This document shows, one piece after another, positions 8,003-39,106 of a stretch of DNA of 64,000 nt. Position 1 is the stretch's first letter. Every line of letters begins with the position of its first letter. The stretch spans positions 1,027,709-1,091,708 of the forward strand of contig OW818664.1 in the NCBI GenBank assembly GCA_942493085.1. The letters are read 5' to 3'. Origin of the DNA: an uncultured beta proteobacterium. Its GTDB lineage: Bacteria > Pseudomonadota > Gammaproteobacteria > Burkholderiales > Thiobacillaceae. The notes beneath the pieces are model-generated. The model saw nothing but the letters and a program-made list of their open reading frames with translations. It ran no database searches and was not told the DNA's origin. The translations under genes were made by a program, and so were the position numbers.

Positions 8003-8035
8003 CTCACGCGCGGCGCATTTGACTATGCTGTCAGT

Positions 8036-13888: not shown

Positions 13889-15715
13889 CTAGTGTTCGTT
13901 GGCCTGCAGCCACTGCTCCAGCATCATCGTCACCCAGATCATTACGCCGTAGTAACTGGCGTGCGGGCCACGTTGCATGGCCAGCATGTGATCGAGATAG
14001 GCTGGTTCGATCCAGCCGCGCTGCTTGAAGTCCGACAGGCTGTCGCCGACGAGATCGCCAAGCGGGGCGTATTGGGTGTTCCATACACCGAACGGTAGGC
14101 CGAAGCCATGTTTGCTCTTGTTAATGATCTTTTCGGGTAGCAGGTCTCGCAGCGCCTCCTTGAAGAACCAGCGCAGACTCTGGCCGCGCACTTTGTAGTC
14201 GACCGGCAGGTGGTTGGCGAAGGCGACCATGCGGTCGTCGAGCAGCGGATAGTGCACTTCGATGCCGGCCGCCTCGGTCATCGTACCGACCTTGCGCAGG
14301 TCGTTGTCGGCCAGGGTGAACTTCAGGTCCAGGTGCATCATGCGGTTGATGTAATGGTCCGATGCAGTGCGTTCATATACTTCGGTGAGCGCGGCATCTG
14401 TGATCGAAGGATCGATGGCACAATGGAAATCAGGGGTAAGGATCTGATCGAGTGGCGTACGGTGCATGAAATTGTAGCTTTCCAGACGCAACGGCAGCCC
14501 CATGTTCGCCTGGCGCACGTAGCTTTTCAGTTTGGCCAGTGGGAAGCGGTCGGATAATCCGGGCAAATGCACGATCGGCTCAACGATGCCGCGCCGGATG
14601 GACGTCGGTAGGCGAAAGTAGCTCTCGAATAGTTTTTGCTTGGCGTAGCGCACATTGCCGCCGAAGATTTCGTCGCCACCGTCACCGGCGAACATGTTCT
14701 GGAATCCAGCTTCCTGCGCAGCCTTGGCGCAGAAATAGGCTGGCACCGCCGAAGCATTGCCGAACGGCTCGTCATATTCACGCGCGATGACGGGAATTGC
14801 CGTCACGATGTCGGCGGGCTTTAGGTAATACTCATGGCTGCGGCTGCCGTAGCGTTCGGCGGCGCAGCGTGCGTATTCCATTTCATCGAAACCCTCGGCG
14901 TCGAAACCGATGGAAAACGTGTCGACCGGCGCACCGCGCGCAGCGGTGAGCGCGCCGACTACGGTGGAACTGTCGGTGCCGCCAGAGAGAAAGGCCGCTG
15001 TAGCGGGCGCATCGGCAGCGCGTACGGACTGGTCCAGTATTTCTCGAAACAGGCGGCGCTGTTCTTCGAAACCGGTTTGGATCGGAACGTAGTCGGCTTG
15101 CCAGTAGAAATCAACGTTGATTTGGCCATTGCTCAGGGTAACGATCTGTCCCGGAAGCAGTTTGTGGATGCCCTGGTACAGACTGCGCGGCGCGGGGATG
15201 GTATGGAAATACAGGTAGTCGTATATCGCCTGGGGGTCGATGGTGCGACCTACGGCAGGATGGGCCGCCACGTTTTGTACGCTGCTGCCGAATATCAGAT
15301 TGCCGCCGCGATAGGCATAACTCAACCGTTCGGTACCCATGCGATCCAGCACCAGGCAGGCTTTTTTCTTGAGGGAATCGAGCACGGCAAAGGCGAAATT
15401 ACCGTGCATCAGGGTGGGCAGTTTTTCACCGAAACGCATCCAGCCATGTGCGAGGGCCACGACCTGGCCTTGATCGCGGGCAATCAAGGCCAGGTCGTCA
15501 TCCAGAAACCGTGGCCGGCCGTATAAGGTGGCTGCAAGGCCGTTCTCCACATGGATGTCGGCTTTGCCGAAGCGTGAGGTTGCGGCCACGCCGAGGATCT
15601 GGCTGCTGTGTGCATGCAGCAGATTGTCTGTTGGCATATGAGCCGCTTGGCCCATATGCCTGATCAGGTCCTGATGTGCGCCGTGCTCGCCGAGCCAGCC
15701 AAAAATACCATCCAT
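13889..15715 (-). CDS. Asparagine synthetase (AsnB)-like amidotransferase homologue 1, lacking the N-terminal Cys nucleophile
   Basis: PP-loop AFLSGGTDSSTVVG and AsnB-type synthetase domain. The N-terminus reads MDGIFGW (codon 2 is GAT, checked on the DNA) where class-II amidotransferases have Cys2. Confidence 0.9.
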   Translation of the reverse strand: MDGIFGWLGEHGAHQDLIRHMGQAAHMPTDNLLHAHSSQILGVAATSRFGKADIHVENGLAATLYGRPRFLDDDLALIARDQGQVVALAHGWMRFGEKLPTLMHGNFAFAVLDSLKKKACLVLDRMGTERLSYAYRGGNLIFGSSVQNVAAHPAVGRTIDPQAIYDYLYFHTIPAPRSLYQGIHKLLPGQIVTLSNGQINVDFYWQADYVPIQTGFEEQRRLFREILDQSVRAADAPATAAFLSGGTDSSTVVGALTAARGAPVDTFSIGFDAEGFDEMEYARCAAERYGSRSHEYYLKPADIVTAIPVIAREYDEPFGNASAVPAYFCAKAAQEAGFQNMFAGDGGDEIFGGNVRYAKQKLFESYFRLPTSIRRGIVEPIVHLPGLSDRFPLAKLKSYVRQANMGLPLRLESYNFMHRTPLDQILTPDFHCAIDPSITDAALTEVYERTASDHYINRMMHLDLKFTLADNDLRKVGTMTEAAGIEVHYPLLDDRMVAFANHLPVDYKVRGQSLRWFFKEALRDLLPEKIINKSKHGFGLPFGVWNTQYAPLGDLVGDSLSDFKQRGWIEPAYLDHMLAMQRGPHASYYGVMIWVTMMLEQWLQANEH

Positions 15716-15744: not shown

Positions 15745-16764
15745 ATGTCCGCCAATATAAACGAAGCTGCAGATTGGCACGAATCCTGTGCGTTCTGTCT
15801 CGACTGGATCAGGCATCAAATTGAAAACGGCAACCCGCGCATGAATTTGAGTGCATTTTTTGACAAAGTGACCAAGACGCTGGCGTATCACTCGCGCCGG
15901 CAGCTTCGACGCCTGCGTGAGATGTGCTGGGGTCTGTCACGCCGCCCAGCCAGCCGCCCCATCATTGTGGTGGGGTGTTCGCGTGCGGGTACCACGTTGG
16001 TCTATAAGACCTTGTCGGAATCGCGTGAAATCGGCAGTCTGCAGCGTGAAACCCACGATTACTGGACCGACCTGCATCCGCCGGTCGACAAGCACTGGAA
16101 CACCCATGCGCTGGACGCGGCCGACGCCAGCGAGCGCGACCGCGACACCGTCAGCCGCTATTTCTTCAGCTGGACCGGCCGCCGTCGCTGGGTAGACAAG
16201 AATAACCAGAACGGCTTGTGCGTACCCTATCTGCAGGCGCTGTTTCCCGACGCTGTGTTCGTTTTCGTCAAGCGCAGCCCGGGCGACAACCTCAATTCGC
16301 TGATCGAAGGCTGGCGCAAACCTGACGAATTCGCCACCTGGTCGAACGACCTGCCGGCGACGGTGGCGGTGGAAAACGGCACCCTGTCCCAGTGGTGTTT
16401 CTTCCTCGCCGAGGGTTGGCGCGAGTATGTGAATGCGCCAGTCGAGGACGTCGCCGCATTTCAGTATGTCGCCATCAACCAGGCTATCCTCGATGCCAAA
16501 GCCAGTGTGCCTGCCGGGCAATGGGTCGAGGTGTTCTACGAAGACTTTCTGCGCGATCCGGCCACCACCTTTCGGCAGATATTTGAGGGTTGTGGCTTGA
16601 GCTTCGACTCGCGTTTGCAGATGCATTGCGCCGGGGTGCTCGATATCCCTTACAACGCCTTTTCCGAAATCCGCCTGGATAAATGGAAGGACGGCCACAA
16701 CCGGGAAAAAATTGAGCGCGTGTTGCCCCAGGTGGCAGACGTGGCGGCAAGGATGGGCTATTGA
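15745..16764 (+). CDS. Sulfotransferase family protein (paralogue 2)
   Basis: 5'-PSB-like IIVVGCSRAGTTLVYKTL; 3'-PB-like VFVKRSPGDNLNSLI. The alternative start ATG 15841 (MNLSAFF) would leave a more plausible divergent intergenic region. Confidence 0.8.
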   Translation: MSANINEAADWHESCAFCLDWIRHQIENGNPRMNLSAFFDKVTKTLAYHSRRQLRRLREMCWGLSRRPASRPIIVVGCSRAGTTLVYKTLSESREIGSLQRETHDYWTDLHPPVDKHWNTHALDAADASERDRDTVSRYFFSWTGRRRWVDKNNQNGLCVPYLQALFPDAVFVFVKRSPGDNLNSLIEGWRKPDEFATWSNDLPATVAVENGTLSQWCFFLAEGWREYVNAPVEDVAAFQYVAINQAILDAKASVPAGQWVEVFYEDFLRDPATTFRQIFEGCGLSFDSRLQMHCAGVLDIPYNAFSEIRLDKWKDGHNREKIERVLPQVADVAARMGY

Positions 16765-16876: not shown

Positions 16877-18070
16877 GTGACGATGTTAGTGCTTGCTCTT
16901 GCCGCCATCCTGCTTCTGTGGACAGCCGTCCTGCTCGCTTTTGCCGGCCCGCTCGCAGCGCGCTGGCGTGAGCCAGTACTGCGTCAGCCCGTTTTGATCA
17001 TCGAGAGCGATGATTGGGGTGCAGGTCCGCTGGCACAGGCCGACGCGTTGAACCGGCTGTCTGCATTATTGCAGCGGGTGCGTGATCGCGGTGGTCATCC
17101 GGCCGTGATGTCGCTGGGTGTGGTGCTGGAAGTGCCGGACGGCAAACGAATCGCCGCGACCGGCGTGACCGAATACCATGCGTTGCCGCTTGCTGATGCG
17201 TGCTTTGACGATATACGTGCCGTGATGCGGTCTGGCATTGATGCAGGCGTGTTCGCGCCGCAACTGCATGGCCAATGCCACTACTGGCCGCCTGCAGTGA
17301 TGGATGCAGCAAAATCGGATGCCAGCGTGCGCGATTGGCTGACCGCCTCCGATCCTGTCGCTACCGAAAATTTGCCTTCGCCCCTGCAAAGCCGCTGGAT
17401 CGATGCATCCATGTTGCCGTCGCGCGTGCTGGCGCCCGAAGCGATCCGGCAGGCCGTCATTGCCGAGGCCGCATCCTATCAAGCAGCTTTTGGGAGCGCG
17501 CCACAGGTAGCAGTGGCCACCACTTTTGTTTGGAACGAGCTAGTCGAAGCTGGCTGGGCGCAGGCAGGGGTCGAGACCATCATTACGCCGGGGCACCGCG
17601 CCACCTGCCGCAATGCCGCCGGGCAGCCGGCCTGTGAGGATGCAACGATGCTAACGGGTGAACATTCACTCGCAGGGCAAACGTATCTGGTGCGCGATGT
17701 GTATTTTGAACCGGCGCTTGGACATACGCCGCAGCGTCTTGTGGATGGCTTGCTGGCGCGCACCCGGCAGGGACGCGCGTGTTTGGTAGAAACCCATCGC
17801 TTCAACTTTCTGCAGGCGCTGGACGCCAGTCTCGATGCTTTGGAAACGGGCTTGTGCGCTGCGCTGGCAGCCTGCTCCGACCTGCACTTCATTAGCCCAC
17901 TTGAATTGGCCCATGCGATCCAGAGCCGCGATCCGGCCCGGATCGAAACCCGGCTGATGCCGCGCTTCGTCGCCTGGCACGCACGTCTGGACGAGATCCC
18001 GCGTTTTCGCCGGGTGGCACAATTGAGTGGCTTGGCGCTGCCGCTGGCCTGGCTGGAGCGTGTGGCATGA
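16877..18070 (+). CDS. Hypothetical N-terminally membrane-anchored protein (tentatively YdjC/ChbG-like carbohydrate deacetylase-related)
   Basis: GTG 16877 or ATG 16883. N-terminal helix LVLALAAILLLWTAVLLAF followed by PVLIIESDDWGAGP, which resembles the (N/S)DDFG start of YdjC-type enzymes. The stop overlaps the next gene (ATGA at 18067). Confidence 0.55.
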   Translation: MTMLVLALAAILLLWTAVLLAFAGPLAARWREPVLRQPVLIIESDDWGAGPLAQADALNRLSALLQRVRDRGGHPAVMSLGVVLEVPDGKRIAATGVTEYHALPLADACFDDIRAVMRSGIDAGVFAPQLHGQCHYWPPAVMDAAKSDASVRDWLTASDPVATENLPSPLQSRWIDASMLPSRVLAPEAIRQAVIAEAASYQAAFGSAPQVAVATTFVWNELVEAGWAQAGVETIITPGHRATCRNAAGQPACEDATMLTGEHSLAGQTYLVRDVYFEPALGHTPQRLVDGLLARTRQGRACLVETHRFNFLQALDASLDALETGLCAALAACSDLHFISPLELAHAIQSRDPARIETRLMPRFVAWHARLDEIPRFRRVAQLSGLALPLAWLERVA

Positions 18071-20949: not shown

Positions 20950-22047
20950 TCAGGGGCGGACGTAACTCAGCAGAAGTGTTTCGAATTCACGCACTGGGCG
21001 GGTCGTAAAGTCCTGTTCCACCCGGGCACGACCGGCCTCTCCTATGCGTTTGCGCAGCGCCGGGTCGGCAACCAGGGCAGCCACCCTCGCTGCCAGTGCA
21101 TCGACGTCTCCCGCTTCGACCAGATAGCCGTTCACACCGTCTTCGACCACTTCTGGAATGCCGCCTACCCGGGTTGCGACAACCGGTTTTCGGCAGGCGC
21201 CGGCCTCCAGGTTGATGAGCCCCAGCGGCTCTTGCCAGCGTGAGGGCACGACCACGATATCAGCAGTCTGGTAGACGTTTTCCACCGCCTTCACATAACC
21301 GATGTAGCGTATGCGGGTGTCGCCTTCCGCCAGGTTCTCCAGATCCAACTCGGAATACGAACCGGAAAATTTCTTCGGATCGCGGCACTCCCCCGCGATC
21401 AGGAAACGGGCACTGGGATCCGGAATTTTCCTTGCCATGGCGATGAAGTCGCCCACGCCCTTGATGTCGCGAATCTGTCCAAGGAAGGAAACGACCACGT
21501 CGGATTCGGCCAGCCCCAGTTCGTGGCGCAGGCTCTGTCCCGCGTCGAAACGGGCGAGATTGATGGGGTTGTAGATGACGGGCTTGGGGAGATCCGGCGG
21601 TCCCGACTGCTCGGCCGTATAGTGCGATACCGCAATCGCTGCGCGGCACCAGCGCATTGCCGGCGAGGGTTTATGGTTGATGACATGGTAGTGCGCAAGA
21701 ATGGGAATCCCCGCGAGCCTTGCGGCGAGCAGTTCCGCCGGTCGCCAGAAGTTCGAGCCGTTGGCATGGATGACCTCGACGCGCTCCCGGCGAAAAAAGC
21801 GCCATGCCTTCCACAGGGACCGAAGATAGGCGGCAGGTGAACCGGGTTCGGTAAAGGACGACCAGATTTCGTAGCGTAATTTGTGCGCGTCCAGCTCGGG
21901 CTCGATGGGCCCTTGGCGGGGCAGGATCAGGATGGGGTCGATTTTGCTCGTGTCGAGCTGCCATAGATTGGTGTAGAGAACGCGGCTGGCGCCGCCCCAG
22001 TCCCCTGCGCTGTTGGTGAAGAAGCAGACTACGGGTTTCGTGTTCAT
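20950..22047 (-). CDS. Glycosyltransferase family 1 (GT4)
   Basis: Real start ATG 22047 (MNTKPVVCFFTNSAGDWGGASRV). The 313-codon 5' extension of the tracked ORF overlaps the methyltransferase gene in another frame. C-terminal EPLGLINLEAGACRKPVVATRVGGIPEVV. Confidence 0.85.
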   Translation of the reverse strand: MNTKPVVCFFTNSAGDWGGASRVLYTNLWQLDTSKIDPILILPRQGPIEPELDAHKLRYEIWSSFTEPGSPAAYLRSLWKAWRFFRRERVEVIHANGSNFWRPAELLAARLAGIPILAHYHVINHKPSPAMRWCRAAIAVSHYTAEQSGPPDLPKPVIYNPINLARFDAGQSLRHELGLAESDVVVSFLGQIRDIKGVGDFIAMARKIPDPSARFLIAGECRDPKKFSGSYSELDLENLAEGDTRIRYIGYVKAVENVYQTADIVVVPSRWQEPLGLINLEAGACRKPVVATRVGGIPEVVEDGVNGYLVEAGDVDALAARVAALVADPALRKRIGEAGRARVEQDFTTRPVREFETLLLSYVRP

Positions 22048-22078: not shown

Positions 22079-22789
22079 TCATTGTTTGATGACGTGATAT
22101 TTCCAGGTGCATTGGGGGTGGGGCTGCACGCGTTCAGGTTTGTCGCTGAAAAACGTGTCGATTGCCTTGGTGGCGCCTGGCCAGCGTGTGTCGCCATACT
22201 CGTCGAACATGATGGCCCCGCCGGGCTGGACCTTGTCGTAGAGCGTCTCCAGGGAAAGCTTGTAGGATTCGTAGAGATCGCAATCGAGATGCAGCAGGGC
22301 GATGCGGCCTTCGTACGTGGGGAGGGTCTGGTCGAACCAGCCTTTGACAAGACGGATGCGCTCGCGGATGACCTCTTCGCCCACTCGTCCGTCGCGCAGA
22401 ACCTTGAGAACGGTGTCCGGCGGATTGGCCCAGAACCCTTTGCCCTTGATGGGCGTGATTTCGTCCTTGTCGACCGGCTCCGGGAATCCCTCGAAGGAGT
22501 CGAAGCCAAAGTAGATTCGCGGTCTTCCGACATAGTCGCTGAACAGGGTGAACAGCAGCGCGCCATGACCGAGCGAGACGCCGCATTCAACAATGTCGCC
22601 GTCAACGTCCTGCACCTTTTCCACCATGTCCTTGAAATAAAGATAGCGATCCAGCGCGCCGCGATAGACCCGTGGAAGAAACGGCGAATGGTTGTAGTCG
22701 GCCGGGATGCTTTCCTCCAGGGGGTCGATTTTCTCGATTTTGTAGCCCAGCCGGCGCAAGGATCGTTTGACGATGGATTTGAATGGCAT
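22079..22789 (-). CDS. TylF/MycF-family SAM-dependent O-methyltransferase
   Basis: GDIVECGVSLGHGALLF (SAM motif I) and LLHLDCDLYESYKLSLETLYDKVQPGGAIMFDEY, typical of macrocin-O-methyltransferase-like enzymes. Confidence 0.85.
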   Translation of the reverse strand: MPFKSIVKRSLRRLGYKIEKIDPLEESIPADYNHSPFLPRVYRGALDRYLYFKDMVEKVQDVDGDIVECGVSLGHGALLFTLFSDYVGRPRIYFGFDSFEGFPEPVDKDEITPIKGKGFWANPPDTVLKVLRDGRVGEEVIRERIRLVKGWFDQTLPTYEGRIALLHLDCDLYESYKLSLETLYDKVQPGGAIMFDEYGDTRWPGATKAIDTFFSDKPERVQPHPQCTWKYHVIKQ

Positions 22790-22802: not shown

Positions 22803-25800
22803 CTAGGCTCGCTGTTTGGCCGGCGTGTCCGGAATGCGACCGATCCATCCGTTCAACCGCTGCCACAGCATGGCAGTTATGTCCGGATGCAGGTCGACCA
22901 GATTGTTCTTGCACATGGGATCGGCGGCGACATCGAACAGCTGGAGCAATTCGCCGCTGCTCAGAGGCTGATAGGTCAGTTTCCAACGCCCATGGCGGAT
23001 CATGCGGTCCTTGGCAGCAAGGATCGCGTTGCTGTATTCCTGCTTGATCGTCAGGGTGCCGCTGACGCGGTTGGGCACTTCCATCAATTCCAGTAGGCCC
23101 GGATAGCGCAGGTGTGCGTCGGGCATGCCGGGAATGTCGGCAATCCAGATACCAGTTTCGTTGAACGCGTCGAGCTCGGGGCAGCGGGCTGTCTGTTTCA
23201 GGCAGCCTACGAGTGACACCCCGTCCATGCCGGCGGCAGACGGCGCGCCGATGAGCTCAAGCAGTGTGGGTGCGAGGTCGATCGAACGCACGACCGTGTC
23301 CACCAGACCGCACGGCGCCAGGCGCGGATCATGTATCACGAGCGGGATGCGGGGGCTCGCTTCGCCCACCGCCGAATTGCCCTGGCCCCAGGTGTCGTGT
23401 TCGAAAAACTCCATGCCGTGGTCGGAGTAGACGACGACGATCGTGTTTTCCGCCAGACCGCAGGTATCGAGATGCGCCAGCATCCTCCCCACTTCGTCGT
23501 CGAACTCGGCGACGCAGCCGTCGTACAGGTCGATGATCTGGTCGAGGTCGAATTCCTCCCTGGGCGCGCCCTGGCGGCGAATGATCTCGAAGGGGTCGGT
23601 CAGGCGCGCCATCGCAAACTTGGATTCGCCGGCATAGGCCGGGTCGGCGAAACGCGTGTACCACGGCCATTCCGAGGCGAAAGGCGGATGGGTGGTGGAA
23701 TAGAATACGTTGAGAAAAAACGGCTGCGCGCTTTCTGCCAGGCGCGACACCAGCCGCCGCGCGCGCTTGCCAAGTGGCTGCGTCAGCGGCACCCCGCCGA
23801 GGTAATACAGTTCGGGCAGCAGCATCCGCCCCAGCCGGTTGTGGGTGAACAGCGAGATGAACAGGCGCAAATCCTTGGGACCCTGGCGGATCAGGTATTT
23901 CAGGTTCCACTGGTCTTCCGGCAGGTCGGTGTAGTCGAAGCCGAATGAAAACTTGCCCATGTCGGCACCGCACCAGTCCGAAAGCGCCGCCGTGCGATAT
24001 CCCGACTGTTTCAGCAGCGTGGGTAGGGCATCCGCTTTCAGCTGCGTGTTTTCGTCGTCCACATAATTGTCGCGGACGCCGTGGGTGTGCGGCCAGGTGC
24101 CGGTCAGCATGGAAATCAGGCTCGGCGCGGTGCGCGCGCACGGAACATAACAATTGCTGAACAGCGCGCCGGCATCGGCCAACCGGTCAATGTGGGGCGT
24201 CAGCACGCGGTGGTAACCGAGTGCGCCGAGGCGGTCAGCGCGCAAGGTATCGGAGCCAACCATCAGTATGTTGGGGGGCGCACCGGCCGAGCGGGCAGGC
24301 CGCTTGCGTGGGGCACGCGCTTGCGGCTGCCATCCCGCCCAGGTGACTGTTCCGGCAAGGAACAGTGTGGCCGCCCACAGTGCAATCAGATCACCGACAC
24401 GGTTTTCGGTTGCCAATTGCCAGGATGACGCCGCCAGCAACAGCCCGATCATTCCCATTCCGAGCAGCTGCAGTTGCGATATGCGCGTCGGCGTCATCCA
24501 GTGCCACAGCCGGTACAGCCGACTCAGGCGGTAATGCATCGAGGCGACCAGCAGGCCGGGGTTGAACCGCAGCTTGCGGATAAATTGCAGTGCGAATGCA
24601 CCCAGCACGCCCAGAATGGCGGCAATGAAGGCGAGACCTCTCGACCAGGGGACACCGAGCAGCGTGTTGAGCATGAAATACAGCAGCACGCCTGCGCCAC
24701 CGGTAAACAACATCAACATGAACGTCCAGGCGGTAAGCCGTGCCAGCGCAAACAGGGTGTAACGCTGGTAATGGGTTAGCACTTCTTCGCGTATGCGCGG
24801 CCCGGTCTGCGAAAAATCAAGCAAGGATTTGGCGAGCAGTGCGGCTGCGCCGATCCCCGCCACGCCAAGCGCAGGAAGCAGGCCGGCCCAGCGTGTCTCG
24901 CCGCTGGCGAACCACGCGAGCAATCCGCTGGTAGCGGTGAGTAGCGCCAGCCCCTCCACCTGCAGCATGCCGCGGTCGGGCGGCAATGCCAGATGCTTGC
25001 CGCGATGTCCCGATTCGCTGCGTCCCTGTATCTCGCCCAGTGCCGCTGCCGTGCGCACCCAGTAAAAACGCCGCTTGGCCCATGAGAGGGCGAACAGGCT
25101 GTGGAAGCCATATTCAGCCAGTTTTCGCCACATGAACAGCGGCACACGGCCGTTGCCGAGGATGCGCGAGGTGGAGCGGGTGCGTTGATAGCCCTTTTTC
25201 AGCAGATAGCCGAGCTTGAGCCGTTCCACGTCGACGTAATGATGCTGCACCATGTCCGGGGCGTACTGGCAGCGCACGCCACGCATCATCGCGCGCAGTA
25301 CGTATTCACTGTCCTCGCCGCCGCCGAGGTCGTGTCCGTGCGGACCCAGTTCGGTGGAAAATTTGCCGGCCAGTTCGAACACAGAACGCCGCACCACCAG
25401 ATTGCCGCCGCCGGGGATGGGACCCTCTTCGGGAGTGATTGTCTTCGGCTGGCTGTCCTGGTCGTAACGCGGCACTGGCAGCGGATAAATCCGGTAGGTG
25501 CCCTCGTCATGCACCCATGCCGGCTCGCTGCCGTCCCAGTCGGGCAGGATACGGCCGCAATACAGTCCCGCATCCGGCCAGGTCTTCGCTGCCTGCTCGA
25601 TGGCGACCAGGTAGTTTTCGTCAACCCGATGGTCGTCATCGACAAAGGCGGTGAGTTCGGTGTCGATCTCGGGAATGGCGCGATTCAGCGCGTGCGACTT
25701 GCCGGGAGTGGGTACTTCGATCAACCGCAGCGGTAACCAGCCCAGTTCGGTCTGCCGAGCCTGATACGCCTGCATGCGGGCGACTGTCTCGTCGACGCAG

Positions 25801-25922
25801 GCGTTGGCCGCCACCAGAATCTGTACCGGCATGGCAGGCCGTTTTGCCGTGTTGAGCGAAGCCAGCACCCGCTCCAGCAGATCGGCCCGGTTGTGGGTGC
25901 AGATCAGGACAGTCAGTTGCAT
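22803..25922 (-). CDS. Fusion protein: GT2 glycosyltransferase + polytopic membrane region + sulfatase/alkaline-phosphatase-superfamily domain
   Basis: Start ATG 25922 (MQLTVLICTHNRADLLERVL), overlapping the upstream TGA by 1 nt. GT2 motifs FVDDDHRVDENYL and GGEDSEYVLR. At least 5 hydrophobic helices in the middle. C-terminal NILMVGSDTLRADRLG, VPCARTAPSLISMLTG, VVYSDHG. Confidence 0.8.
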   Translation of the reverse strand: MQLTVLICTHNRADLLERVLASLNTAKRPAMPVQILVAANACVDETVARMQAYQARQTELGWLPLRLIEVPTPGKSHALNRAIPEIDTELTAFVDDDHRVDENYLVAIEQAAKTWPDAGLYCGRILPDWDGSEPAWVHDEGTYRIYPLPVPRYDQDSQPKTITPEEGPIPGGGNLVVRRSVFELAGKFSTELGPHGHDLGGGEDSEYVLRAMMRGVRCQYAPDMVQHHYVDVERLKLGYLLKKGYQRTRSTSRILGNGRVPLFMWRKLAEYGFHSLFALSWAKRRFYWVRTAAALGEIQGRSESGHRGKHLALPPDRGMLQVEGLALLTATSGLLAWFASGETRWAGLLPALGVAGIGAAALLAKSLLDFSQTGPRIREEVLTHYQRYTLFALARLTAWTFMLMLFTGGAGVLLYFMLNTLLGVPWSRGLAFIAAILGVLGAFALQFIRKLRFNPGLLVASMHYRLSRLYRLWHWMTPTRISQLQLLGMGMIGLLLAASSWQLATENRVGDLIALWAATLFLAGTVTWAGWQPQARAPRKRPARSAGAPPNILMVGSDTLRADRLGALGYHRVLTPHIDRLADAGALFSNCYVPCARTAPSLISMLTGTWPHTHGVRDNYVDDENTQLKADALPTLLKQSGYRTAALSDWCGADMGKFSFGFDYTDLPEDQWNLKYLIRQGPKDLRLFISLFTHNRLGRMLLPELYYLGGVPLTQPLGKRARRLVSRLAESAQPFFLNVFYSTTHPPFASEWPWYTRFADPAYAGESKFAMARLTDPFEIIRRQGAPREEFDLDQIIDLYDGCVAEFDDEVGRMLAHLDTCGLAENTIVVVYSDHGMEFFEHDTWGQGNSAVGEASPRIPLVIHDPRLAPCGLVDTVVRSIDLAPTLLELIGAPSAAGMDGVSLVGCLKQTARCPELDAFNETGIWIADIPGMPDAHLRYPGLLELMEVPNRVSGTLTIKQEYSNAILAAKDRMIRHGRWKLTYQPLSSGELLQLFDVAADPMCKNNLVDLHPDITAMLWQRLNGWIGRIPDTPAKQRA

Positions 25923-26842
25923 CACGATCGCGAGCGGTAGCCCATCAGGGCGCCCAGGGTGTGAGAGGCATTCATGCCTTGCCGCAGCGCGCCCGGACGC
26001 TGGGCGAACTGCATGCTGATTGCCTTGATGGCCTGCCGCAGAAACTGGGCGACCAGAAAGGGTGGCAGGCCCAGCACGGTTTTTGGATAGATTGGCAACT
26101 GGTGCTGCCCGTGGCGCAGGCCCGCCCGGTAGTGCAGCTTGAGAAAATAGCTGCGCGTCAATCGCCAGGGTTCGACGGCATGCAGCACGGCCATGCCGGG
26201 GCAATAGCGGATTCGAACCTTGCGCTCGAGTAGGGTGCGAAACATGATGGCATCGGAGCCGCCGCCGACGACATTGCCCTTGCGATCATAGCGTTTGTCG
26301 AACCGCAGGCCCGGATCGTCGCGGAACAGGCGCATGTCGTAGGCGACGTTGGCTGTCCAGATGGGCGTGGCAGCATCCTCGATCCAGAAGGCATCGGGGC
26401 CGTGGTCGACCGCTGCCAGGAAGCCCAGCAGTTCATTGCCCAGCCATGCCGGACGGGGGTAATGGGAGAAGTCCATCTCGACCCTGCCGCCGGCACATTG
26501 CGCGCCTTCGTCCAGCATGGCGTGGGCGGCTGCTTCCAGGATGCCTGGCAGGGGCGTCTCGTCGTCGTCGATAAAAACCATGATGTCGCTATCGATGGAT
26601 TCCTCGATCGCGCGGTTGCGAGCGGCGACAATACCCTGAACCGGCTCGGTCACCCAGCGTAAAACGGGGCCCGGAAGCTGCGTCAGGCGGTTCAGGACTT
26701 CGACCGTGTTATCGCTGCTGTTGTTGTTGACGGCAAGAATCTCGAACGGAACCGGGCAGGTTTGCGCGCGCATGGCGGCTACCAGTTTTTCCAGCCGGTC
26801 GGCGCGGTTGTAAGTGCAAAAAGCGAAAACAAGTCGGGGCAT
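25922..26842 (-). CDS. Glycosyltransferase family 2
   Basis: LVFAFCTYNRADRLEKLVAAMRAQ, ILAVNNNSSDNT, FIDDDETP. Confidence 0.85.
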   Translation of the reverse strand: MPRLVFAFCTYNRADRLEKLVAAMRAQTCPVPFEILAVNNNSSDNTVEVLNRLTQLPGPVLRWVTEPVQGIVAARNRAIEESIDSDIMVFIDDDETPLPGILEAAAHAMLDEGAQCAGGRVEMDFSHYPRPAWLGNELLGFLAAVDHGPDAFWIEDAATPIWTANVAYDMRLFRDDPGLRFDKRYDRKGNVVGGGSDAIMFRTLLERKVRIRYCPGMAVLHAVEPWRLTRSYFLKLHYRAGLRHGQHQLPIYPKTVLGLPPFLVAQFLRQAIKAISMQFAQRPGALRQGMNASHTLGALMGYRSRS

Positions 26843-26851: not shown

Positions 26852-28672
26852 TTAGGTCGGGTTCGATGGTGAGGTGAGATTTTGACTCATCGCGTTGAGA
26901 TAGAGGTTGATCTGCATCAGACGCATCATGACGCTGATGGGGTGGATGCGGTCGGCCTGATATCGCCTGGCGGTGATTCGCCAGGTTCCGGGTAACGCCT
27001 GCCACCAGCGGGTACGCGGGATGGGGTAGGGCTTGCCGGCGAGCAGACTGTCGATGAGTGCGAACAGACTGTCGGGTCTGAACAATGCAGCCAGACGCGG
27101 ATCGAGTTGACGATGAAACTGGACTCGGATGAATTCGGCCAGAGAAGGATTGGCGGGGATGGACTGCCGGTAAGTCTGTGCCTGGGGGATTGAGTCCTTG
27201 TGGGCAAACGGAATGGCAGCCAGATCAGGATGGGCTTTTTGCAGCATTTTCTTGGCCAGGGCATTTCCGCTGCGCAAGGCGCCAGGCATTGAAATGAGGC
27301 AGTCCACCAGGTCCTCGTCCAGCCAGGGCCGTGCCTGCTCGAACCGCCGCAGATTGGCTGCGGTGAATGCATTCTGCCGGTTGAACAGCCGCTGTTCAAA
27401 ATAGATTTTGTCCCGCAAGTCCTGCGGGTCGATGTTGGTGCCCGCTGCCCGTATGTCGTTGAGCGTGTGTTCGATGCTGCTGCGGGCGTGTCGAAGAACT
27501 GCAGGATCGAACAGGTCCTCCAGCCGGCTGGCAAAGGCAAAGGCAAACACGCCGGCCTGGATGAGCGCCTCGTCCGGCGAGGCGGCATGATAGCCGTAAT
27601 AACTTTTGTCCCCCTGGATGAACTGGTCGTATGTTTCTGCCAGTTGATCCTGCAGCAATCCGAGCGACGGGGTGTCGACCGTTTCGGCACGGCAATCGGC
27701 ACGAAGCGCGGCATCGAGAAAATGGTCCTCGGGGTTTGCCGTGGAAATCGGGAGATAGGCAAACGGCAAACCGCAGTGCTGGGCGAGTTGACGGGCAATC
27801 GGGGCGTCGTCGCCTTCCTGGGTGCCGTAGGTGACCGCAGGGATGCGCAAGCCGTTTTCCCGCAGGCCACCCAGGATCATGCGGGAATCGAGCCCCCCGC
27901 TCAGGTACAGAAAGGGGCGATCGCAATGCGCCAGCAGCCTATGGATGGACTGACTGAAAAGGGAAAGCGCTTCCCCGACCCAGTTATCCTCGCTGCCGGG
28001 ATCCTTGTCCGGTTCGATCTGGATGTGCCAGTAGCGGCGGATGGCCATCGAATCTGGTCCGAGGCTCATGACCGAGGCAGGCGGCAATTTCTTGATGCTG
28101 GGAAACAGGGTCCGGTCGTTGTAATAGCTGGCGAAAATCAGAAATTCACTCACCGCCACTGGATCGATTTCCTGTAGGGGCGGCGCAGCACAAGCCAGGC
28201 CGGCCACTTCCGGGCCCGCCAGCACGGATTGGTCTGCATCCTGCCGGTAATAAAGCGGGCGGCTGGCGCGCCGGTCGTTGAACAGGTGGGCCTTGTTGTC
28301 GCGGCTGTCGAGGATCAGGCCGGTGTACGAGCCGCGCAGACCGGGCAGGAAACTGAGTCCCGACTCCAGGTAAAGTGCCAATACGGCGGCGGCAGGTGCA
28401 TGCGGGAATGCCGACTGTCCCGTGATGTGGGTCAGATAGCCTTCGACGAGAACAGTGACCCCGGCTTCGTGAACGGCGTGCGTGTACGACGGCTCATGCC
28501 GAGTGTCCGCCCGGGCCGACAGCCAGTCGCCCAGGTGCGCGTTCGACAGGTGGCGGCCCGCAGGAGGGCGCGTGACGTCTGTAAGATGGAAGCGCCCGGA
28601 TGCAAGCGTGATTCCCGGAATGGTCTGCATGGTCTGGATTCTGTTCTTGTTTTGGTGGGTGGAGTTCTTCAC
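26852..28672 (-). CDS. Asparagine synthetase (AsnB)-like protein 2 with a degenerate N-terminal domain
   Basis: PP-loop FLYLSGGLDSRMILGG and AsnB-like C-terminal domain. No Cys near either candidate start (MKNSTHQ at 28672 or MQTIPGITLASG at 28630). Confidence 0.8.
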   Translation of the reverse strand: MKNSTHQNKNRIQTMQTIPGITLASGRFHLTDVTRPPAGRHLSNAHLGDWLSARADTRHEPSYTHAVHEAGVTVLVEGYLTHITGQSAFPHAPAAAVLALYLESGLSFLPGLRGSYTGLILDSRDNKAHLFNDRRASRPLYYRQDADQSVLAGPEVAGLACAAPPLQEIDPVAVSEFLIFASYYNDRTLFPSIKKLPPASVMSLGPDSMAIRRYWHIQIEPDKDPGSEDNWVGEALSLFSQSIHRLLAHCDRPFLYLSGGLDSRMILGGLRENGLRIPAVTYGTQEGDDAPIARQLAQHCGLPFAYLPISTANPEDHFLDAALRADCRAETVDTPSLGLLQDQLAETYDQFIQGDKSYYGYHAASPDEALIQAGVFAFAFASRLEDLFDPAVLRHARSSIEHTLNDIRAAGTNIDPQDLRDKIYFEQRLFNRQNAFTAANLRRFEQARPWLDEDLVDCLISMPGALRSGNALAKKMLQKAHPDLAAIPFAHKDSIPQAQTYRQSIPANPSLAEFIRVQFHRQLDPRLAALFRPDSLFALIDSLLAGKPYPIPRTRWWQALPGTWRITARRYQADRIHPISVMMRLMQINLYLNAMSQNLTSPSNPT

Positions 28673-28682: not shown

Positions 28683-29513
28683 TCAGGCTGTCAGCATCCA
28701 TTCGCATTTCGTGCCGGCAAGCAGGTCTTCCACCTCCCGGTAGTTCTCGACCAGTTCTTGCAGCGTTTTGATGTTGACCCGCTTCAGAGTCACTTCCGCA
28801 TCGTGGTAAGGAAGGCCGAGATGCGTCAGGATTTCGCGATACGCGACCAGTGGATCGGCCTCGATGTGGTCTTCATAGTACAGCGGGAGGAAGTCGAAAT
28901 ACTCGCCTACCAGGTGACGGGCTTTTTCGGTTTCCTCGTTGATATGTTGGATCATCTCCAACAGCGGCGCATATTTGCCCTGAATCCGGACGCGCTGCAA
29001 ATCGATACGCAGTCGGCCCTTCAATTCGGCATCCTTGCCCTTTGCCACGTGATAAGACTCTCGCAGCCCTTGATCGACGATCTGTACCGAGATCAGCTTG
29101 CGCAGGGTATTGCGGCGATCCAGGAAAATGCAGCGGGAAAATCCGTATTCGTGAATGACATCCAGGAATTGCCTGAGTACTACGCCCAGCGTGGGCAAAT
29201 GCTGGCTCGGCAAGCCTTTGAGCTCAAAGCCCGGCAGTTTACGGCCGGATTCGATCTGCGCGTATTTGAGGTCGTCGCGGAAATTCGGTCGCGGCGTTCC
29301 GGCATCGGCATAGGGCTCATAGATCTCGCCGCGCCAGCGTATGCCAGGGTGCTGGTTGAGGATGCGGCCCAGCACCGTGCTACCACAGCGGCCGTGATGC
29401 CACATGAATACGCCCTTGCGCTTGTCGGCAGGGAAAAGCGGGTAAGCGGGTGCCAGTAATTTGATCTTGAGCTGCCTGGGTATCCGGTTCGACTGGATAA
29501 AGCGCGTCAGCAT
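28683..29513 (-). CDS. Sulfotransferase family protein (paralogue 3, Stf0-like)
   Basis: 5'-PSB-like FMWHHGRCGSTVLGRIL; 3'-PB-like IFLDRRNTLRKLISV. This is the weakest of the four assignments. Confidence 0.65.
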   Translation of the reverse strand: MLTRFIQSNRIPRQLKIKLLAPAYPLFPADKRKGVFMWHHGRCGSTVLGRILNQHPGIRWRGEIYEPYADAGTPRPNFRDDLKYAQIESGRKLPGFELKGLPSQHLPTLGVVLRQFLDVIHEYGFSRCIFLDRRNTLRKLISVQIVDQGLRESYHVAKGKDAELKGRLRIDLQRVRIQGKYAPLLEMIQHINEETEKARHLVGEYFDFLPLYYEDHIEADPLVAYREILTHLGLPYHDAEVTLKRVNIKTLQELVENYREVEDLLAGTKCEWMLTA

Positions 29514-31405: not shown

Positions 31406-32209
31406 TCAATAGCCCCATTGCTTCATTTCGCCCGACAACCAGTAATGCAGGCGCACGCGTTCCCACGTGCTGAGATGTGACTGATTCGCCGCGCGCCAGT
31501 CGACCTGACTGGTGCGGGTGAAGTCGGCGGGCGGACGGGTGCCGATGTCCAGATACTCCAGAATCCGGCTTTGCAGGGCCGGGTCGGCGATGAAATCCTC
31601 GTATCGCATGGCCAGGCCGAAATCCGCCTGGCGGAACTGCATGGAGCGCGTGCGCCAGTGTTCAGCATAGTATTTCAGGGTGGCATGTCCTGCTGTCCGG
31701 CCCATCCAGTCGCGGCGCTTGAGGGACAGCATGACGTCGAACGGATTGCGAACCAGAAACAGAAAACGGGCATCCGGGAACAGCGCCCGCAACTGCCGGG
31801 CGGTGGCGAGGTCGCAGCGCGTTTCCTTGATTCCGTAGCGCGGATAACCCAGAGACAGCGCGCGCTGCCCGTAAAGCGTGTCGAACAGTCCATATACAGC
31901 GTGGCGGATGTCAGCGTAGGGCGGGGACAGATTGGCGATCCATTGGCTGGCGTGTTCGGCCTTGGGTGAGGCGATGAATTTGCCGTAGGCGAATTCGCCC
32001 TTGCCTCCGATGCCGCTCGCAAAGCGGCGCGAGCTGTCTGCGGTGATCTGCTCCCAGCCGGCGACGGCCTCTGAGATGGCGTTGAGGGCGCCGCCCGTCT
32101 CGCCCCACACCAGCACTTCGCCGGAAGCCGTGATGAAGCGCTGCAGCAGCGTGCTGCCGGAACGCCATGAGGACGAGAAGACAAAAATGGGTTGGGCTGG
32201 AGGATTCAT
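31406..32209 (-). CDS. Sulfotransferase family protein (paralogue 4)
   Basis: ATGA overlap with the wzx stop (ATG 32209, MNPPAQPIF). 5'-PSB-like FVFSSSWRSGSTLLQRFI; 3'-PB-like LFLVRNPFDVMLSL. Confidence 0.8.
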   Translation of the reverse strand: MNPPAQPIFVFSSSWRSGSTLLQRFITASGEVLVWGETGGALNAISEAVAGWEQITADSSRRFASGIGGKGEFAYGKFIASPKAEHASQWIANLSPPYADIRHAVYGLFDTLYGQRALSLGYPRYGIKETRCDLATARQLRALFPDARFLFLVRNPFDVMLSLKRRDWMGRTAGHATLKYYAEHWRTRSMQFRQADFGLAMRYEDFIADPALQSRILEYLDIGTRPPADFTRTSQVDWRAANQSHLSTWERVRLHYWLSGEMKQWGY

Positions 32210-33675
32210 TGTCCGATAGGGTATGTCAGTCTCAGTTTCGCTTTCCAGCGCCGGCGTTCGGTCGCCAGGGCTGGTATCGGCAGGAACAGCAGGCACCCGG
32301 CATACACCAGTGCGCCGGCTATGCCCAAGACCGCGACCTTCACGAGAGCGTGTCCGAGCCAGTCAGGTGGCAGCAATTGTTCGAGTAGATACAACGAAAA
32401 AGCGAGTATGGCATTCAGCAGAACGGCTGGAACGATCGCCCGCAGTCCGCTCAGCCATCCGGCTTGAAGGCATCTCAGGGCCAGGCGGTGCATGTAAATG
32501 CCGCTGAATCCTGCGGCGCCGACGATGGCCCAGGCAACGCCATCAATACCATAGGGCAAGGCTGTGATAACGCCGAGCACAGCGATGATCAAGGTGGCAA
32601 CTTGTATTTTCAATTCATGCCCTAGCCAGTTCCGGGCGGCGAGAACGGCGCCGGACAGCTTGTTCGCCAGCCAGAACGGCCAGGCGAACGCCAGGATCAT
32701 CAATGGCCCTGCGGATGCGACCCATTTTTCGCCATAAATGCCGTGGATGAGCGGTTCGGCCAGCCACAACAGGCCAATATAGAAAGGCGTGGCGTAAACG
32801 GCAACCAGCGCGATGCTGCGAAAGAAAAGATAACGGCATTTGTCGAGGTCGTCCTGTTCGGCCGCCATGGCGCGAAACAGAACCTGATACACCGATCCGG
32901 TAATGAAGCTGTGCGGCATTCGGGCCAGGCTCTCGCCCTTGTTGAATAGGCCGACGCTGGCCGGCCCGAGCGTGCGGGACAGGATGAAGATGCTGACCTG
33001 CGTGCGCAGGTAGTTGACGATATCGTTGACCGAAACCAGCAGGCCATAGCGCGCGATGTCGCGCCCGCGGCTGAAATCCAGCGAAAAACCGGGGCGCCAG
33101 CGGGCCAGCGGAATCAGCACGGCCGCACTGTAGATCGAACCGGCGATGCCGCCCCAGATCAGGCTCCACACACCGTAGCCCAGCCAGGCCATGAAGATGC
33201 TTGTGGAACTGGAGACCAGCAGTCCGCTGATGCCGACGACGGTTTGCGCCTTGTAGCGCATGTGCCGATACAGCATGCTGGCCGGCAGGTTGACCAGCGG
33301 ACGGAAAATGAAGGAGAGGGCGGACACGCGCAGCAGGTCGGTATACAACGGGGTGTCGTACCAGCGGGCGAACCAGGGTGCGGCAAAGAAGAACCCGGCA
33401 TAGATCAGGCAGCCGATGCCGAGCTGCAGGGTGAAAACGATGTCGTAGTCCTGCTGGGTGGCAGTCTTGGCGCGCACCAGCGCCTGTCCCATGCCGCCGC
33501 CGGCGACGAAACCGGCCATCCCGGTGAAAACCTGGATGGTGAGCAGGATGCCGAAATCCTCGGGCGCCAACAGACGCGCTAGTACGATGCCGAACAGAAA
33601 GGCCAGTATCTGTTTGCCGCTGTTGCCGACAAACAGCCAGGCAACACCGTGGCGGATGTTTTGGCCGAGATTCAT
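32206..33675 (-). CDS. wzx: Oligosaccharide-unit flippase (MOP/Wzx family)
   Basis: 489 aa, about 12-14 hydrophobic helices. N-terminus MNLGQNIRHGVAWLFVGNSGKQILAFLFGIVLARLLAPEDFG, typical of polysaccharide-biosynthesis/Wzx proteins. Confidence 0.85.
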   Translation of the reverse strand: MNLGQNIRHGVAWLFVGNSGKQILAFLFGIVLARLLAPEDFGILLTIQVFTGMAGFVAGGGMGQALVRAKTATQQDYDIVFTLQLGIGCLIYAGFFFAAPWFARWYDTPLYTDLLRVSALSFIFRPLVNLPASMLYRHMRYKAQTVVGISGLLVSSSTSIFMAWLGYGVWSLIWGGIAGSIYSAAVLIPLARWRPGFSLDFSRGRDIARYGLLVSVNDIVNYLRTQVSIFILSRTLGPASVGLFNKGESLARMPHSFITGSVYQVLFRAMAAEQDDLDKCRYLFFRSIALVAVYATPFYIGLLWLAEPLIHGIYGEKWVASAGPLMILAFAWPFWLANKLSGAVLAARNWLGHELKIQVATLIIAVLGVITALPYGIDGVAWAIVGAAGFSGIYMHRLALRCLQAGWLSGLRAIVPAVLLNAILAFSLYLLEQLLPPDWLGHALVKVAVLGIAGALVYAGCLLFLPIPALATERRRWKAKLRLTYPIGQ

Positions 33676-33987: not shown

Positions 33988-34551
33988 TCAAATGTGTGCG
34001 CTCCGCCGCCGCGTGACGAAATCAACCAGATTTCGATAAAGCGCTGCGGGCAGCAGGCTGGCGACAAGGTGCTTGAGGTCAGTGGCCTTCCAGTCTGCCT
34101 TGTGAAATGCGCGGCGAAACAGACGGCGGGCTGACTCGGTGTCGTTGCGCCAGTGGCAGCGATAGGCTTCGTGCAGCAGAGGTGCGTAGATCAATTCGTT
34201 CAGGCGGATTGGGGTCAGGTGGCGGACGAATTCAGGCTGAGCGCGAGCGAAGTCCTGGCGTACGGCGACGGCATCGAACACCTGCCGCCAGTGCGGGATG
34301 TGGGCATTGCCGCGCGGATAACGGCGGTAAAACGCCAGCACTTCGGGCACGCGCACAAGTTTGGGCTGGTGCGCCAGCATGTTGAGCCAAAGGTCGAGGT
34401 CCATGGCGGTGGGCGCGCGCTCGGAAAATTCCCGCAATCCGTCGATGAGGGGGCGGCGGATCAGCACGCTGTTAATCGCCTCTTCGACAAAGGGCGCGGC
34501 GTTGTAGCAAGGCATGACGACGGTAATCAGTTCAGGGTCGAAGTGGTCCAT
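33988..34551 (-). pseudogene. Internally deleted copy of the GT2 gene at 39107..40075 (catalytic core missing)
   Basis: Hand alignment gives two colinear segments. 34022-34473 aligns to 39147-39598 (5 mismatches in about 452 nt). 34475-34551 aligns to 39999-40075 (5 mismatches in about 78 nt). A 399-bp in-frame deletion between CAGCACGCT copies removes the DxD-containing GT-A core. Confidence 0.8.
34022..34551 (-). repeat. Direct repeat copy A (truncated GT2), paired with 39147..40075
   Basis: See the alignment above; constant offsets of 5125 and 5524 nt. Confidence 0.9.
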
Positions 34552-38754: not shown

Positions 38755-39026
38755 TGCTTTTCCTCAGTTGAGTAATCGATTTCTATGAAGCATCTGTCAA
38801 GAACCGGTTTCATTGCCAGTTGCATATATTCGCCTCCAGGCATTGGGGCCGCAGCAACGCGTGGAAGGATTGTCGAAAGCGATGACATGCGAACGTCTGT
38901 ATGGCCGGTACCTGGCCATTTGCTGGGCCATTATTCCAATACGCTGGCCAGGCGTCTAGGAGGAGGATGGGTGGTGAGAGCAGTGTTTGTATTCATGTGC
39001 GATTTTTGTGATTGTTGTTAATGGTT

Positions 39027-39042: not shown

Positions 39043-39106
39043 GAAAACCCGCTAAGTAAGGGCCTTCGCGCAGGCGGCTATCAAGTCCGCATTATTTGCA
39101 AACCGC

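Follow-up and report, generated by a model that had tools for sequence, protein, structure and literature searches.

To our knowledge, every characterised membrane-anchored enzyme of the sulfatase/alkaline-phosphatase fold that carries a threonine nucleophile (LtaS, EptA/MCR-1, OpgB, BcsG and YejM) works outside the cytoplasmic membrane. The YejM domain is periplasmic, and its active site has been compared with those of LtaS and EptA (PMC7576196). Here we describe a gene in a 64,000-nt stretch of contig OW818664.1 from an uncultured beta proteobacterium (assembly GCA_942493085.1; this whole stretch is called the window below), which encodes a fusion of a family 2 glycosyltransferase (GT2), six transmembrane (TM) helices and a Thr-type sulfatase-fold domain that is predicted to face the cytoplasm together with the GT2. 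A preliminary description of the window knew of no characterised enzyme with this architecture. That view stands, as our literature search found no description of a GT2-TM-sulfatase fusion, of an inward-facing Thr-type sulfatase-fold enzyme or of a sulfated exopolysaccharide (EPS) from Thiobacillus; the fusion is not rare, however, being catalogued in databases and represented by 275 relatives in GTDB species genomes.

The same description had divided the gene into a GT2, a membrane region and a sulfatase fold, a division that Pfam searches, hydropathy and an AlphaFold2 (AF2) model all bear out, and the peptides it quoted are all present in the translation. The AF2 model, built on a 124-sequence alignment, served for secondary structure and confidence values; its confidence is high throughout (mean pLDDT 91.5, pTM 0.89), and it lays the protein out as a GT-A domain, three amphipathic helices (237-304), six long helices and an alpha/beta domain from 551 to about 1030. 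The parts are located in the window as follows.

22803..25922, minus strand: whole gene, a 1,039-aa GT2-6TM-sulfatase-fold (Thr-type) fusion protein (intact open reading frame, AF2 model, collinear orthologues)
25233..25922, minus strand: GT2 (GT-A) glycosyltransferase domain, aa 1-230 (Pfam PF13641 and PF00535 above cut-off)
25632-25640, minus strand: DxD motif of the GT2, D95-D97 (D95-D96-D97; from the sequence)
25305-25322, minus strand: GGEDSE motif of the GT2, aa 201-206 (from the sequence)
25011..25229, minus strand: three amphipathic/interface helices joining the GT2 to the membrane, aa 232-304 (AF2 helices 237-255, 262-277 and 281-304; K/R-rich)
24333..24974, minus strand: six TM helices, aa 317-530 (hydropathy and AF2)
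24273..24332, minus strand: basic linker from the last TM helix to the catalytic domain, aa 531-550 (WQPQARAPRKRPARSAGAPP; five K/R in 12 residues after TM6)
22833..24272, minus strand: sulfatase-fold (alkaline-phosphatase superfamily) domain with C-terminal subdomain, aa 551-1030 (Pfam, phmmer against the PDB, Foldseek)

The frame 22803..25922 is free of interruptions, in agreement with the single frame from ATG 25922 read previously. This ATG and the stop codon of the upstream GT2 gene have one base in common (TGATG), and the N-termini of orthologues show the same M-x-LTVLICTHN as the product that begins there. A TTG at 26204, the mechanical limit of the open reading frame, was dropped as a start because it would create a 283-nt overlap with the upstream gene and because orthologues begin at the ATG. 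No stop or frameshift splitting two genes was found, and an assembly artefact was ruled out by the collinear architecture of all 120 best database matches (75-98% identity) and of nearly all of the 80 loci kept from among the 275 GTDB relatives. The N-terminal domain is assigned to the GT2 family (GT-A fold, inverting) by its DxD and its Pfam matches at aa 3-228 (PF13641, 48.7 bits with a cut-off of 27; PF00535, 47.3 bits with a cut-off of 23.3); its best NCBIfam match is HpsE-like at 95 bits, under that model's cut-off, and its only PDB relative is remote (6yv7, E 1.5e-4).

The orientation of the sulfatase-like domain follows from the membrane region, for which no Pfam family was matched even at E values up to 10. 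Hydropathy peaks coincide with AF2 helices at six positions, A to F (317-339, 344-372, 379-422, 428-453, 478-505 and 509-530); helix A is found in the fusion only, and helices B to F are a five-helix core common to stand-alone relatives. Since the six helices that follow the cytoplasmic GT2 are even in number, the chain should return to the cytoplasm. K/R-rich segments precede helix A, occupy the B-C and D-E loops, and form the linker after F (QARAPRKRPARS, +5), and the A-B, C-D and E-F turns are short (ETR, PWSR and ATENR); by the positive-inside rule, the five K/R in 12 residues after TM6 would make the linker cytoplasmic. Because loop charges taken from an alignment are unreliable at about 30% identity, where TM helices become misaligned, lysine plus arginine (K+R) was counted sequence by sequence. 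Each fusion carries 13-19 on the catalytic-domain side versus 0-3 on the opposite side, the five-TM stand-alone proteins carry about 10-13 versus 0-1, and the sum over 46 subfamily members is 524 versus 120. The short N-tails of the stand-alone proteins, mostly without K/R, fit an N-out/C-in arrangement.

Domains appended to homologues that are 51-77% identical to the query bear on the same question. One such protein has a GT4 glycosyltransferase domain fused at the C-terminus of the sulfatase-like domain (P0124; TM, sulfatase and GT4), and two end in a TagF-like CDP-glycerol glycerophosphotransferase domain (P0123, with TM and sulfatase before it, and P0087 of Ca. Nitrotoga, with GT2, 6TM and sulfatase). 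All three are without a hydrophobic segment after the catalytic motif, the maximum Kyte-Doolittle mean over 19 residues there being 1.19-1.29 compared with 2.15-2.45 in their own TM regions. GT-B and TagF-type enzymes use nucleotide-activated donors, which are present only in the cytoplasm, and with no TM helix in between, the sulfatase-like domain that adjoins them should be cytoplasmic as well. From the helix count, the K+R bias and these fusion partners, we predict with high confidence that the sulfatase-like domain faces the cytoplasm together with the GT2. The conserved residues of the membrane region sit outside the TM helices, in two cytoplasmic loops (B-C and D-E), and the AF2 model shows the D-E loop as a pair of short amphipathic helices; this pattern suggests a substrate site at the membrane interface, on the cytoplasmic side.

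The sulfatase-fold domain itself was placed by several searches. Pfam assigns aa 550-892 to Sulfatase PF00884 (161.9 bits with a cut-off of 25, E 3e-47) and aa 854-911 to the SGSH_C subdomain, with an overlapping match to the nucleotide pyrophosphatase/phosphodiesterase (NPP) family, PF01663 (56.2 bits with a cut-off of 23, E 6e-15). The best phmmer matches in the PDB are S1 sulfatases and phosphonate monoester hydrolases (PMH) (4upi, 4upl and 5g2v, E about 1e-26), and the best Foldseek match is the PMH 4uph (E 3e-20); the top 50 fold matches, with target-normalised TM-scores (TMt) from 0.57 to 0.73, are all sulfatases or PMH, with neither EptA nor LtaS among them. NCBIfam models for arylsulfatase and choline sulfatase score 125 and 117 bits, and those for LtaS, YejM and CptA remain under their cut-offs (24.2 versus 970, 21.2 versus 825 and 18.3 versus 404 bits). 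By these sequence and fold matches the domain is assigned to the S1-sulfatase/PMH branch of the alkaline-phosphatase superfamily, outside the LtaS/EptA branch. The kinship with EptA, LtaS, OpgB and BcsG raised in the preliminary description thus holds for the threonine at the nucleophile position, whereas by both sequence and fold the branch is that of S1 sulfatases, PMH and choline sulfatase. The active-site positions are listed here in the order of the protein.

24249..24251, minus strand: D558, first metal ligand (D-T-L-R-A-D motif), aligned with the first Asp of the sulfatase metal site
24117..24131, minus strand: T598-A-P-S-L602, with Thr at the formylglycine (nucleophile) position and Leu for the motif Arg (alignment to 4upi, 4upl and 5g2v)
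23976..23978, minus strand: D649, Asp for the sulfate-binding Lys of G-K-x-x-H, here S-D-W-C (5g2v alignment, 'gyrtaalsdwc' versus 'gyqtamigkwh')
23418..23423, minus strand: D834-H835, metal ligands (SDHG motif), aligned with the sulfatase DHG/DQG and the SDHG of E. coli EptA
23376..23384, minus strand: Q847-G-N849, subfamily signature, near which sulfatases have a Lys (hhalign with EptA, 5g2v alignment, signature table)

In phmmer alignments to solved sulfatases, the formylglycine position is filled by T598 of C-A-R-T-A-P-S-L, a residue invariant in 114 of 114 aligned relatives, and the C/S-x-P-x-R motif was found neither in the query protein nor in about 110 aligned relatives. Alignment to 5g2v and hhalign with EptA further show all four cationic sulfate-binding residues replaced: the motif Arg by L602, the Lys by D649 and the His by C651 (S-D649-W-C651 aligns with G-K-W-H of 5g2v), and the Lys after SDHG, which was not found in the aligned region, by Q847-G-N849. 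A true formylglycine sulfatase, already doubted in the preliminary description, was rejected on these grounds. Among the window genes, Pfam scans turned up no formylglycine-generating or anaerobic sulfatase-maturating enzyme; the genome as a whole was not searched for one.

The divalent-metal ligands of S1 sulfatases (D558, D834 and H835) are retained, D558 being kept in 112 of 114 relatives with Glu in the remainder and D834-H835 being invariant wherever the alignment column is occupied. Across the 114 relatives D558, R561, D563, D649, H745, D808, D834, H835 and E922 are at least 95% conserved, a figure that rises to at least 97% for D558, R561, D563, D649, H745, D834 and H835; H614 and R597 are invariant as well. 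With hhalign, the SDHGE.L.E.G..HG pattern of the wider family aligns with SDHGESLGENGIYLHG of E. coli EptA at 95% probability; position 847 is His in EptA and in a more distant subfamily and Gln here. The signatures of a bimetallic (NPP) site were only partly present, D649 and H745 being invariant and 847 being Gln here and His solely in the distant subfamily; a single metal site, D558, T598, D834 and H835, appears to be kept. Because nucleophile and metal ligands are conserved, an active enzyme with altered chemistry is favoured over a decayed pseudoenzyme, and the domain is likely to be catalytically competent.

The relatives trace where this architecture came from. Thiobacillus accounts for most of the 80 loci, and the rest belong to Ca. 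Nitrotoga, Sulfuricella, Sulfurimicrobium and other Hydrogenophilales/Nitrosomonadales. Cultured strains that carry the gene include Thiobacillus thioparus DSM 505, T. denitrificans RG and Sulfuricella denitrificans skB26; the window is closest to an uncultured metagenome-assembled genome (MAG; 94% identity) and then to Thiobacillus (about 85%). Databases name these proteins 'sulfatase-like hydrolase/transferase' or 'arylsulfatase A-like enzyme/GT2 family glycosyltransferase'. In an exhaustive search of representatives, most relatives at 35-56% identity were stand-alone proteins of about 700 aa that match query residues 346-1030 or thereabouts (five TM helices and the sulfatase-like domain), and residues 1-305 have their counterpart in stand-alone GT2s of about 310 aa (about 50% identity). 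The two adjoin in loci L004 and L005, where a 311-314-aa GT2 (48-50% identity to the N-terminal domain) lies directly upstream of a TM+sulfatase-like gene. The gene is therefore a fused, conserved pair of neighbouring genes, the GT2 followed by the TM+sulfatase-like gene, joined through the extra TM helix A.

The glycosyltransferase (GT) partner of the TM+sulfatase module is, judging from the domain matches, exchangeable, as two GT2 types, GT4 and TagF-like domains are all found with it. In two Thiobacillus MAGs (L079 and L080) the module is 77-78% identical to that of the query and the N-terminal region does not match the query GT2; in L079, where the fusion gene lies at 4900-8223 (plus strand), Pfam identifies this region as a different GT2, and the downstream TylF and GT4 genes are kept as in the window (checked in L079 only). 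The swap of the N-terminal region in these two loci resembles a serotype-like cassette replacement of one domain.

Two subfamilies separate cleanly by active-site signature. The first comprises relatives down to about 33% identity, among them every one located in an EPS locus, and carries T-A-P-S-L together with Q847-G-N849. The second, more distant, carries T-[FL]-P-S-W and His847, has no net K+R bias (472 versus 477), and its loci L086-L088 are not EPS loci; the contexts of these three were for that reason left out of functional inference. The His847 relatives (P0178-P0270) are TM+sulfatase-like proteins of about 700-750 aa that, by a crude hydropathy-based count, may have the opposite orientation, which would amount to a topology inversion within one family.

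The gene is part of a polysaccharide locus of about 40 kb with at least ten GTs. Its minus-strand operon runs in the order Wzx flippase, sulfotransferase, polysaccharide deacetylase, GT2, sulfotransferase-like, AsnB-like, GT2, the gene described here, TylF-type O-methyltransferase and GT4; two more sulfotransferases, further GT2/GT4 genes, a second AsnB-like amidotransferase, an epimerase and a Wzy_C/DUF5935 protein are encoded elsewhere in the locus. The neighbours that bear on function are these.

25922..26842, minus strand: upstream GT2 gene, 306 aa, translationally coupled (Pfam, TGATG overlap)
22079..22789, minus strand: downstream TylF-family O-methyltransferase, 236 aa (Pfam; same neighbour in L079, family present in L004)
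20950..22047, minus strand: downstream GT4 glycosyltransferase, 365 aa (Pfam)
2066-2908, plus strand: sulfotransferase-family gene (Pfam PF13469/PF00685)
15745-16761, plus strand: sulfotransferase-family gene (Pfam PF13469/PF00685)
28686-29513, minus strand: sulfotransferase-family gene, weak match (Pfam PF13469/PF00685)
31409-32296, minus strand: sulfotransferase-family gene (Pfam PF13469/PF00685)
13892-15715, minus strand: AsnB-like amidotransferase, TIGR03108-like (XrtA/PEP-CTERM; NCBIfam 288.6 bits with a cut-off of 816.9)
26855-28672, minus strand: AsnB-like amidotransferase, far more divergent, with an Asn_synthase match at residues 237-322 only (Pfam)

In the Wzx/Wzy route, repeat units are assembled on undecaprenyl-pyrophosphate (undecaprenyl-PP) at the cytoplasmic face of the membrane. 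From its gene content, the locus probably makes a sulfated, methylated, partly de-N-acetylated and amidated EPS by this route, with the four sulfotransferase-family genes implying heavy sulfation. Sulfated extracellular polysaccharides have been described as unique to cyanobacteria among bacteria (synechan paper, PMC8205485). Subfamily members at 35-51% identity (L001, L003, L004 and L005) likewise lie in EPS loci with 1-3 sulfotransferases each, and in L003 a sulfotransferase directly follows the TM+sulfatase-like gene. No exosortase gene is present in the 64-kb window; an exosortase EpsH/EpsI occurs in L003 (relative P0155).

Several other features of the window were recorded. A DDE_Tnp_1 transposase fragment of 170 aa (34756-35265, minus strand) lies between the Wzx gene and a GT2/epimerase block at 35833-40075 and may mark the junction of two cassettes. 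The EPS locus also encodes a 1,100-aa PcRGLX-like (rhamnogalacturonan-lyase-like) beta-sandwich protein and two Kelch/NHL beta-propeller-like proteins (covered together by 10560-13859 and 6746-9304, both plus strand), which may be EPS-processing or secreted partners. Three of its open reading frames have no Pfam match (2857-4281, plus strand, 475 aa; 16877-18067, plus strand, 397 aa; 33991-34551, minus strand, 187 aa), and L003-L005 have comparable genes, about 400-430 aa in length and likewise without annotation. The 2,060-aa repeat protein of 53420-59599 (plus strand) contains nine DUF7933, four SdrD_B and three DUF11 repeats; a 603-aa paralogue-like protein is encoded next (60594-62402, plus strand), and both look like large surface adhesins.

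With the architecture, the active-site pattern, the origin from a gene pair and the fusions to cytoplasmic types of enzyme established by these comparisons, the explanation we put forward, tentatively and at slightly less than an even chance, is that the protein acts as a Thr/metal phospho(sulfo)esterase or transferase, anchored in the membrane and facing the cytoplasm, on lipid-linked repeat units of a sulfated EPS. The GT2 domain would add one sugar to the lipid-linked repeat unit, and the sulfatase-fold domain would be held at the inner-leaflet surface beside the conserved amphipathic loop helices. Metal-activated Thr598 would attack a phosphate ester or, less likely, a sulfate ester to give a covalent Thr intermediate, which water or a sugar hydroxyl would resolve. 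In this way a charged substituent might be added to, removed from or trimmed on the undecaprenyl-PP-linked repeat unit made by the fused GT2 and the neighbouring GTs, before the unit is flipped by Wzx. Every Thr-type member of the superfamily known to us handles phosphate esters, the sulfate-binding cations are gone and an invariant Asp (D649) has been gained; for these reasons phosphoryl rather than sulfuryl chemistry is mildly favoured. This Asp might contact a positively charged portion of the substrate, for instance an amine, or else coordinate a second metal. A bolder version, which we regard as unlikely, takes the Gln847 subfamily as the first cytoplasm-facing ('inverted') counterpart of LtaS/EptA-type enzymes, a membrane-embedded Thr/metal transferase that would act on undecaprenyl-PP-linked repeats of a sulfated EPS before flipping, either with a phospho-head group (e.g. 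phosphoethanolamine or phosphoglycerol) from an inner-leaflet phospholipid or through an unprecedented Thr-based sulfuryl chemistry.

A number of observations weigh against the proposal of a cytoplasm-facing enzyme of the repeat unit. We know of no precedent for an inward-facing membrane-anchored Thr-type PF00884 enzyme, and the catalytic domains of MCR-1, OpgB and BcsG are extracytoplasmic. The same is true of YejM, LtaS and EptA (PMC7576196). The varying GT partner fits a generic role as well as one specific to the repeat unit; the domain is nearer to true sulfatases than to phosphotransferases, and sulfotransferases occur in every locus examined; the subfamily has Gln at 847, unlike the His of EptA; and the window showed no genes of donor synthesis from which the substituent could be named.

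Four other explanations were weighed against the same evidence. In the one that the preliminary description had proposed, sugar transfer by a cytoplasmic GT2 is coupled to a periplasmic Thr-type domain that adds phosphoethanolamine or phosphoglycerol from an outer-leaflet phospholipid to the exported polymer, as EptA, BcsG, OpgB and LtaS do. A polytopic region does precede a Thr-nucleophile PF00884 domain with a D/T/D/H metal site, the stand-alone five-TM core has the TM number of LtaS and EptA, and the SDHG...(H)G segment is the one that hhalign matches to E. coli EptA at 95% probability. Yet six TM helices follow the cytoplasmic GT2, the K+R balance of 524 versus 120 favours a cytoplasmic catalytic domain, the K/R-free N-tails of the stand-alone forms fit N-out/C-in, and GT4 or TagF-like domains come directly after the sulfatase-like domain with no TM between; in addition, NCBIfam scores for LtaS, CptA and YejM are 18-24 bits against cut-offs of 404-970, and the top 50 fold matches are without EptA or LtaS. 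As the helix count, the charge bias and the fusions point to the cytoplasm for both domains, the proposed coupling across the membrane was set aside as very improbable. A purely structural role, in which a pseudoenzyme serves to anchor GTs at the membrane or to bind the anionic glycan, seems just as improbable. It would account for the loss of the canonical sulfatase catalytic residues and for GT partners being swapped around a constant module, but pseudoenzymes normally lose nucleophile and metal-ligand residues, and here the Thr nucleophile, the metal ligands and some 15 further residues of the active-site region are invariant down to 33-35% identity.

The two remaining explanations keep an active enzyme in the cytoplasm, and we consider each of them rather unlikely. 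Thr598 might hydrolyse or relocate sulfate esters on the lipid-linked unit and so edit the pattern laid down by sulfotransferases that depend on 3'-phosphoadenosine 5'-phosphosulfate (PAPS). Such a role would suit the nearest relatives by sequence and fold (S1 sulfatases, PMH and choline sulfatase), the T-x-P-S that is left of the sulfatase motif and the sulfotransferase-family genes (four in the window locus and 1-3 in each of four distant-member loci, adjacent in L003). However, all four sulfate-binding cations are replaced (Arg by Leu, one Lys by Asp, His by Cys and the other Lys by Q-G-N), no sulfatase known to us uses Thr, and, as Cys-to-Ser mutants of sulfatases indicate, a Ser/Thr sulfo-intermediate cannot be eliminated in the manner of the formylglycine hydrate; the company of sulfotransferases may, moreover, just mirror the type of EPS locus. 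Alternatively, the domain could serve the assembly line as an NPP-like phosphodiesterase or phosphatase that clears inhibitory nucleotide by-products (UDP, GDP, CMP and PAP) at the membrane, or as a cytoplasm-facing undecaprenyl-pyrophosphate phosphatase that supplies undecaprenyl phosphate (Und-P). Fusion of the module to four different nucleotide-donor enzymes (two non-orthologous GT2s, GT4 and TagF-like) suggests a role independent of the sugar added, and both the PF01663 match (56 bits, E 6e-15) and a membrane anchor with conserved cytoplasmic-interface loops agree with this. Against it, with Gln at 847 the subfamily seems to lack a second metal site of the Zn1 type (D/H/H), PF01663 and PF00884 are related families whose matches overlap, we know of no bacterial precedent, and the relatives outside EPS loci belong to the other (His847) subfamily. 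The finding would be a routine refinement of annotation if the domain proved to act as a simple phosphatase or as an anchor.

If the proposal of a cytoplasm-facing enzyme of the repeat unit is correct, an inward-facing subfamily would add a step to Wzx/Wzy assembly, namely modification of the lipid-linked unit by an alkaline-phosphatase-fold enzyme at the cytoplasmic face. The subfamily derives from the true-sulfatase branch, its tie to glycosyltransferases shows in gene order and in at least four independent fusions, and it would offer a natural case of a sulfatase scaffold re-tooled from formylglycine to Thr, with a bearing on how chemistry evolves in the superfamily. In Thiobacillus, Nitrotoga and Sulfuricella, the host loci point to an EPS that is heavily sulfated, methylated and amidated; these organisms matter in sulfur and nitrogen cycling and in biofilm or floc formation, and their EPS chemistry is essentially unstudied. 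The corrected picture gives this enzyme class a specific, testable and unprecedented placement.

Compared with known systems, the sulfatase-fold domain shares its fold, including the C-terminal subdomain, with S1 sulfatases, PMH and dimeric arylsulfatases (4uph, 4upi, 4upl, 2vqr and 5g2v; choline sulfatase 6fny), with a best sequence E of 1e-26, a best fold E of 3e-20 and TMt of 0.6-0.7 to the entries named. The D...D-H metal ligands, the x-P-S motif remnant and the His of T-H-x-P are common to both. In S1 sulfatases the nucleophile is formylglycine, made from Cys or Ser, and the query has Thr there; Leu stands in for their motif Arg, Asp and Cys for the Lys-His pair of G-K-x-x-H, and Q-G-N for the distal Lys. 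Unlike S1 sulfatases and PMH, the domain described here is attached to five or six TM helices and joined to glycosyltransferases.

With LtaS, EptA/MCR-1, OpgB, BcsG and YejM, the query has in common a polytopic N-terminal membrane domain (five-helix core) followed by the PF00884 fold, as well as the Thr nucleophile and the D/E-T-D-H metal site, and a part in modifying an envelope glycopolymer, as in that group, is plausible for it. The catalytic domain of the LtaS/EptA group is extracytoplasmic, whereas that of the query is predicted to be cytoplasmic; the query's TM domain is without detectable homology to any Pfam family, its scores are far under the family cut-offs of the group, it has Gln in place of the EptA-type His at 847, and it is fused to a GT2 (in relatives, to GT4 or TagF-like domains), unlike any of the group. 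A third likeness is to multidomain glycopolymer enzymes in which a GT is paired with a modifying domain, such as WbdD-type terminators and TagF/TarL-family polymerases; in these, consecutive catalytic modules act on one lipid-linked intermediate within one polypeptide at the cytoplasmic face. None of these enzymes known to us has a sulfatase-fold domain or such a polytopic anchor; what the query shares with them is the joining, in one chain, of several modules for a single lipid-linked intermediate.

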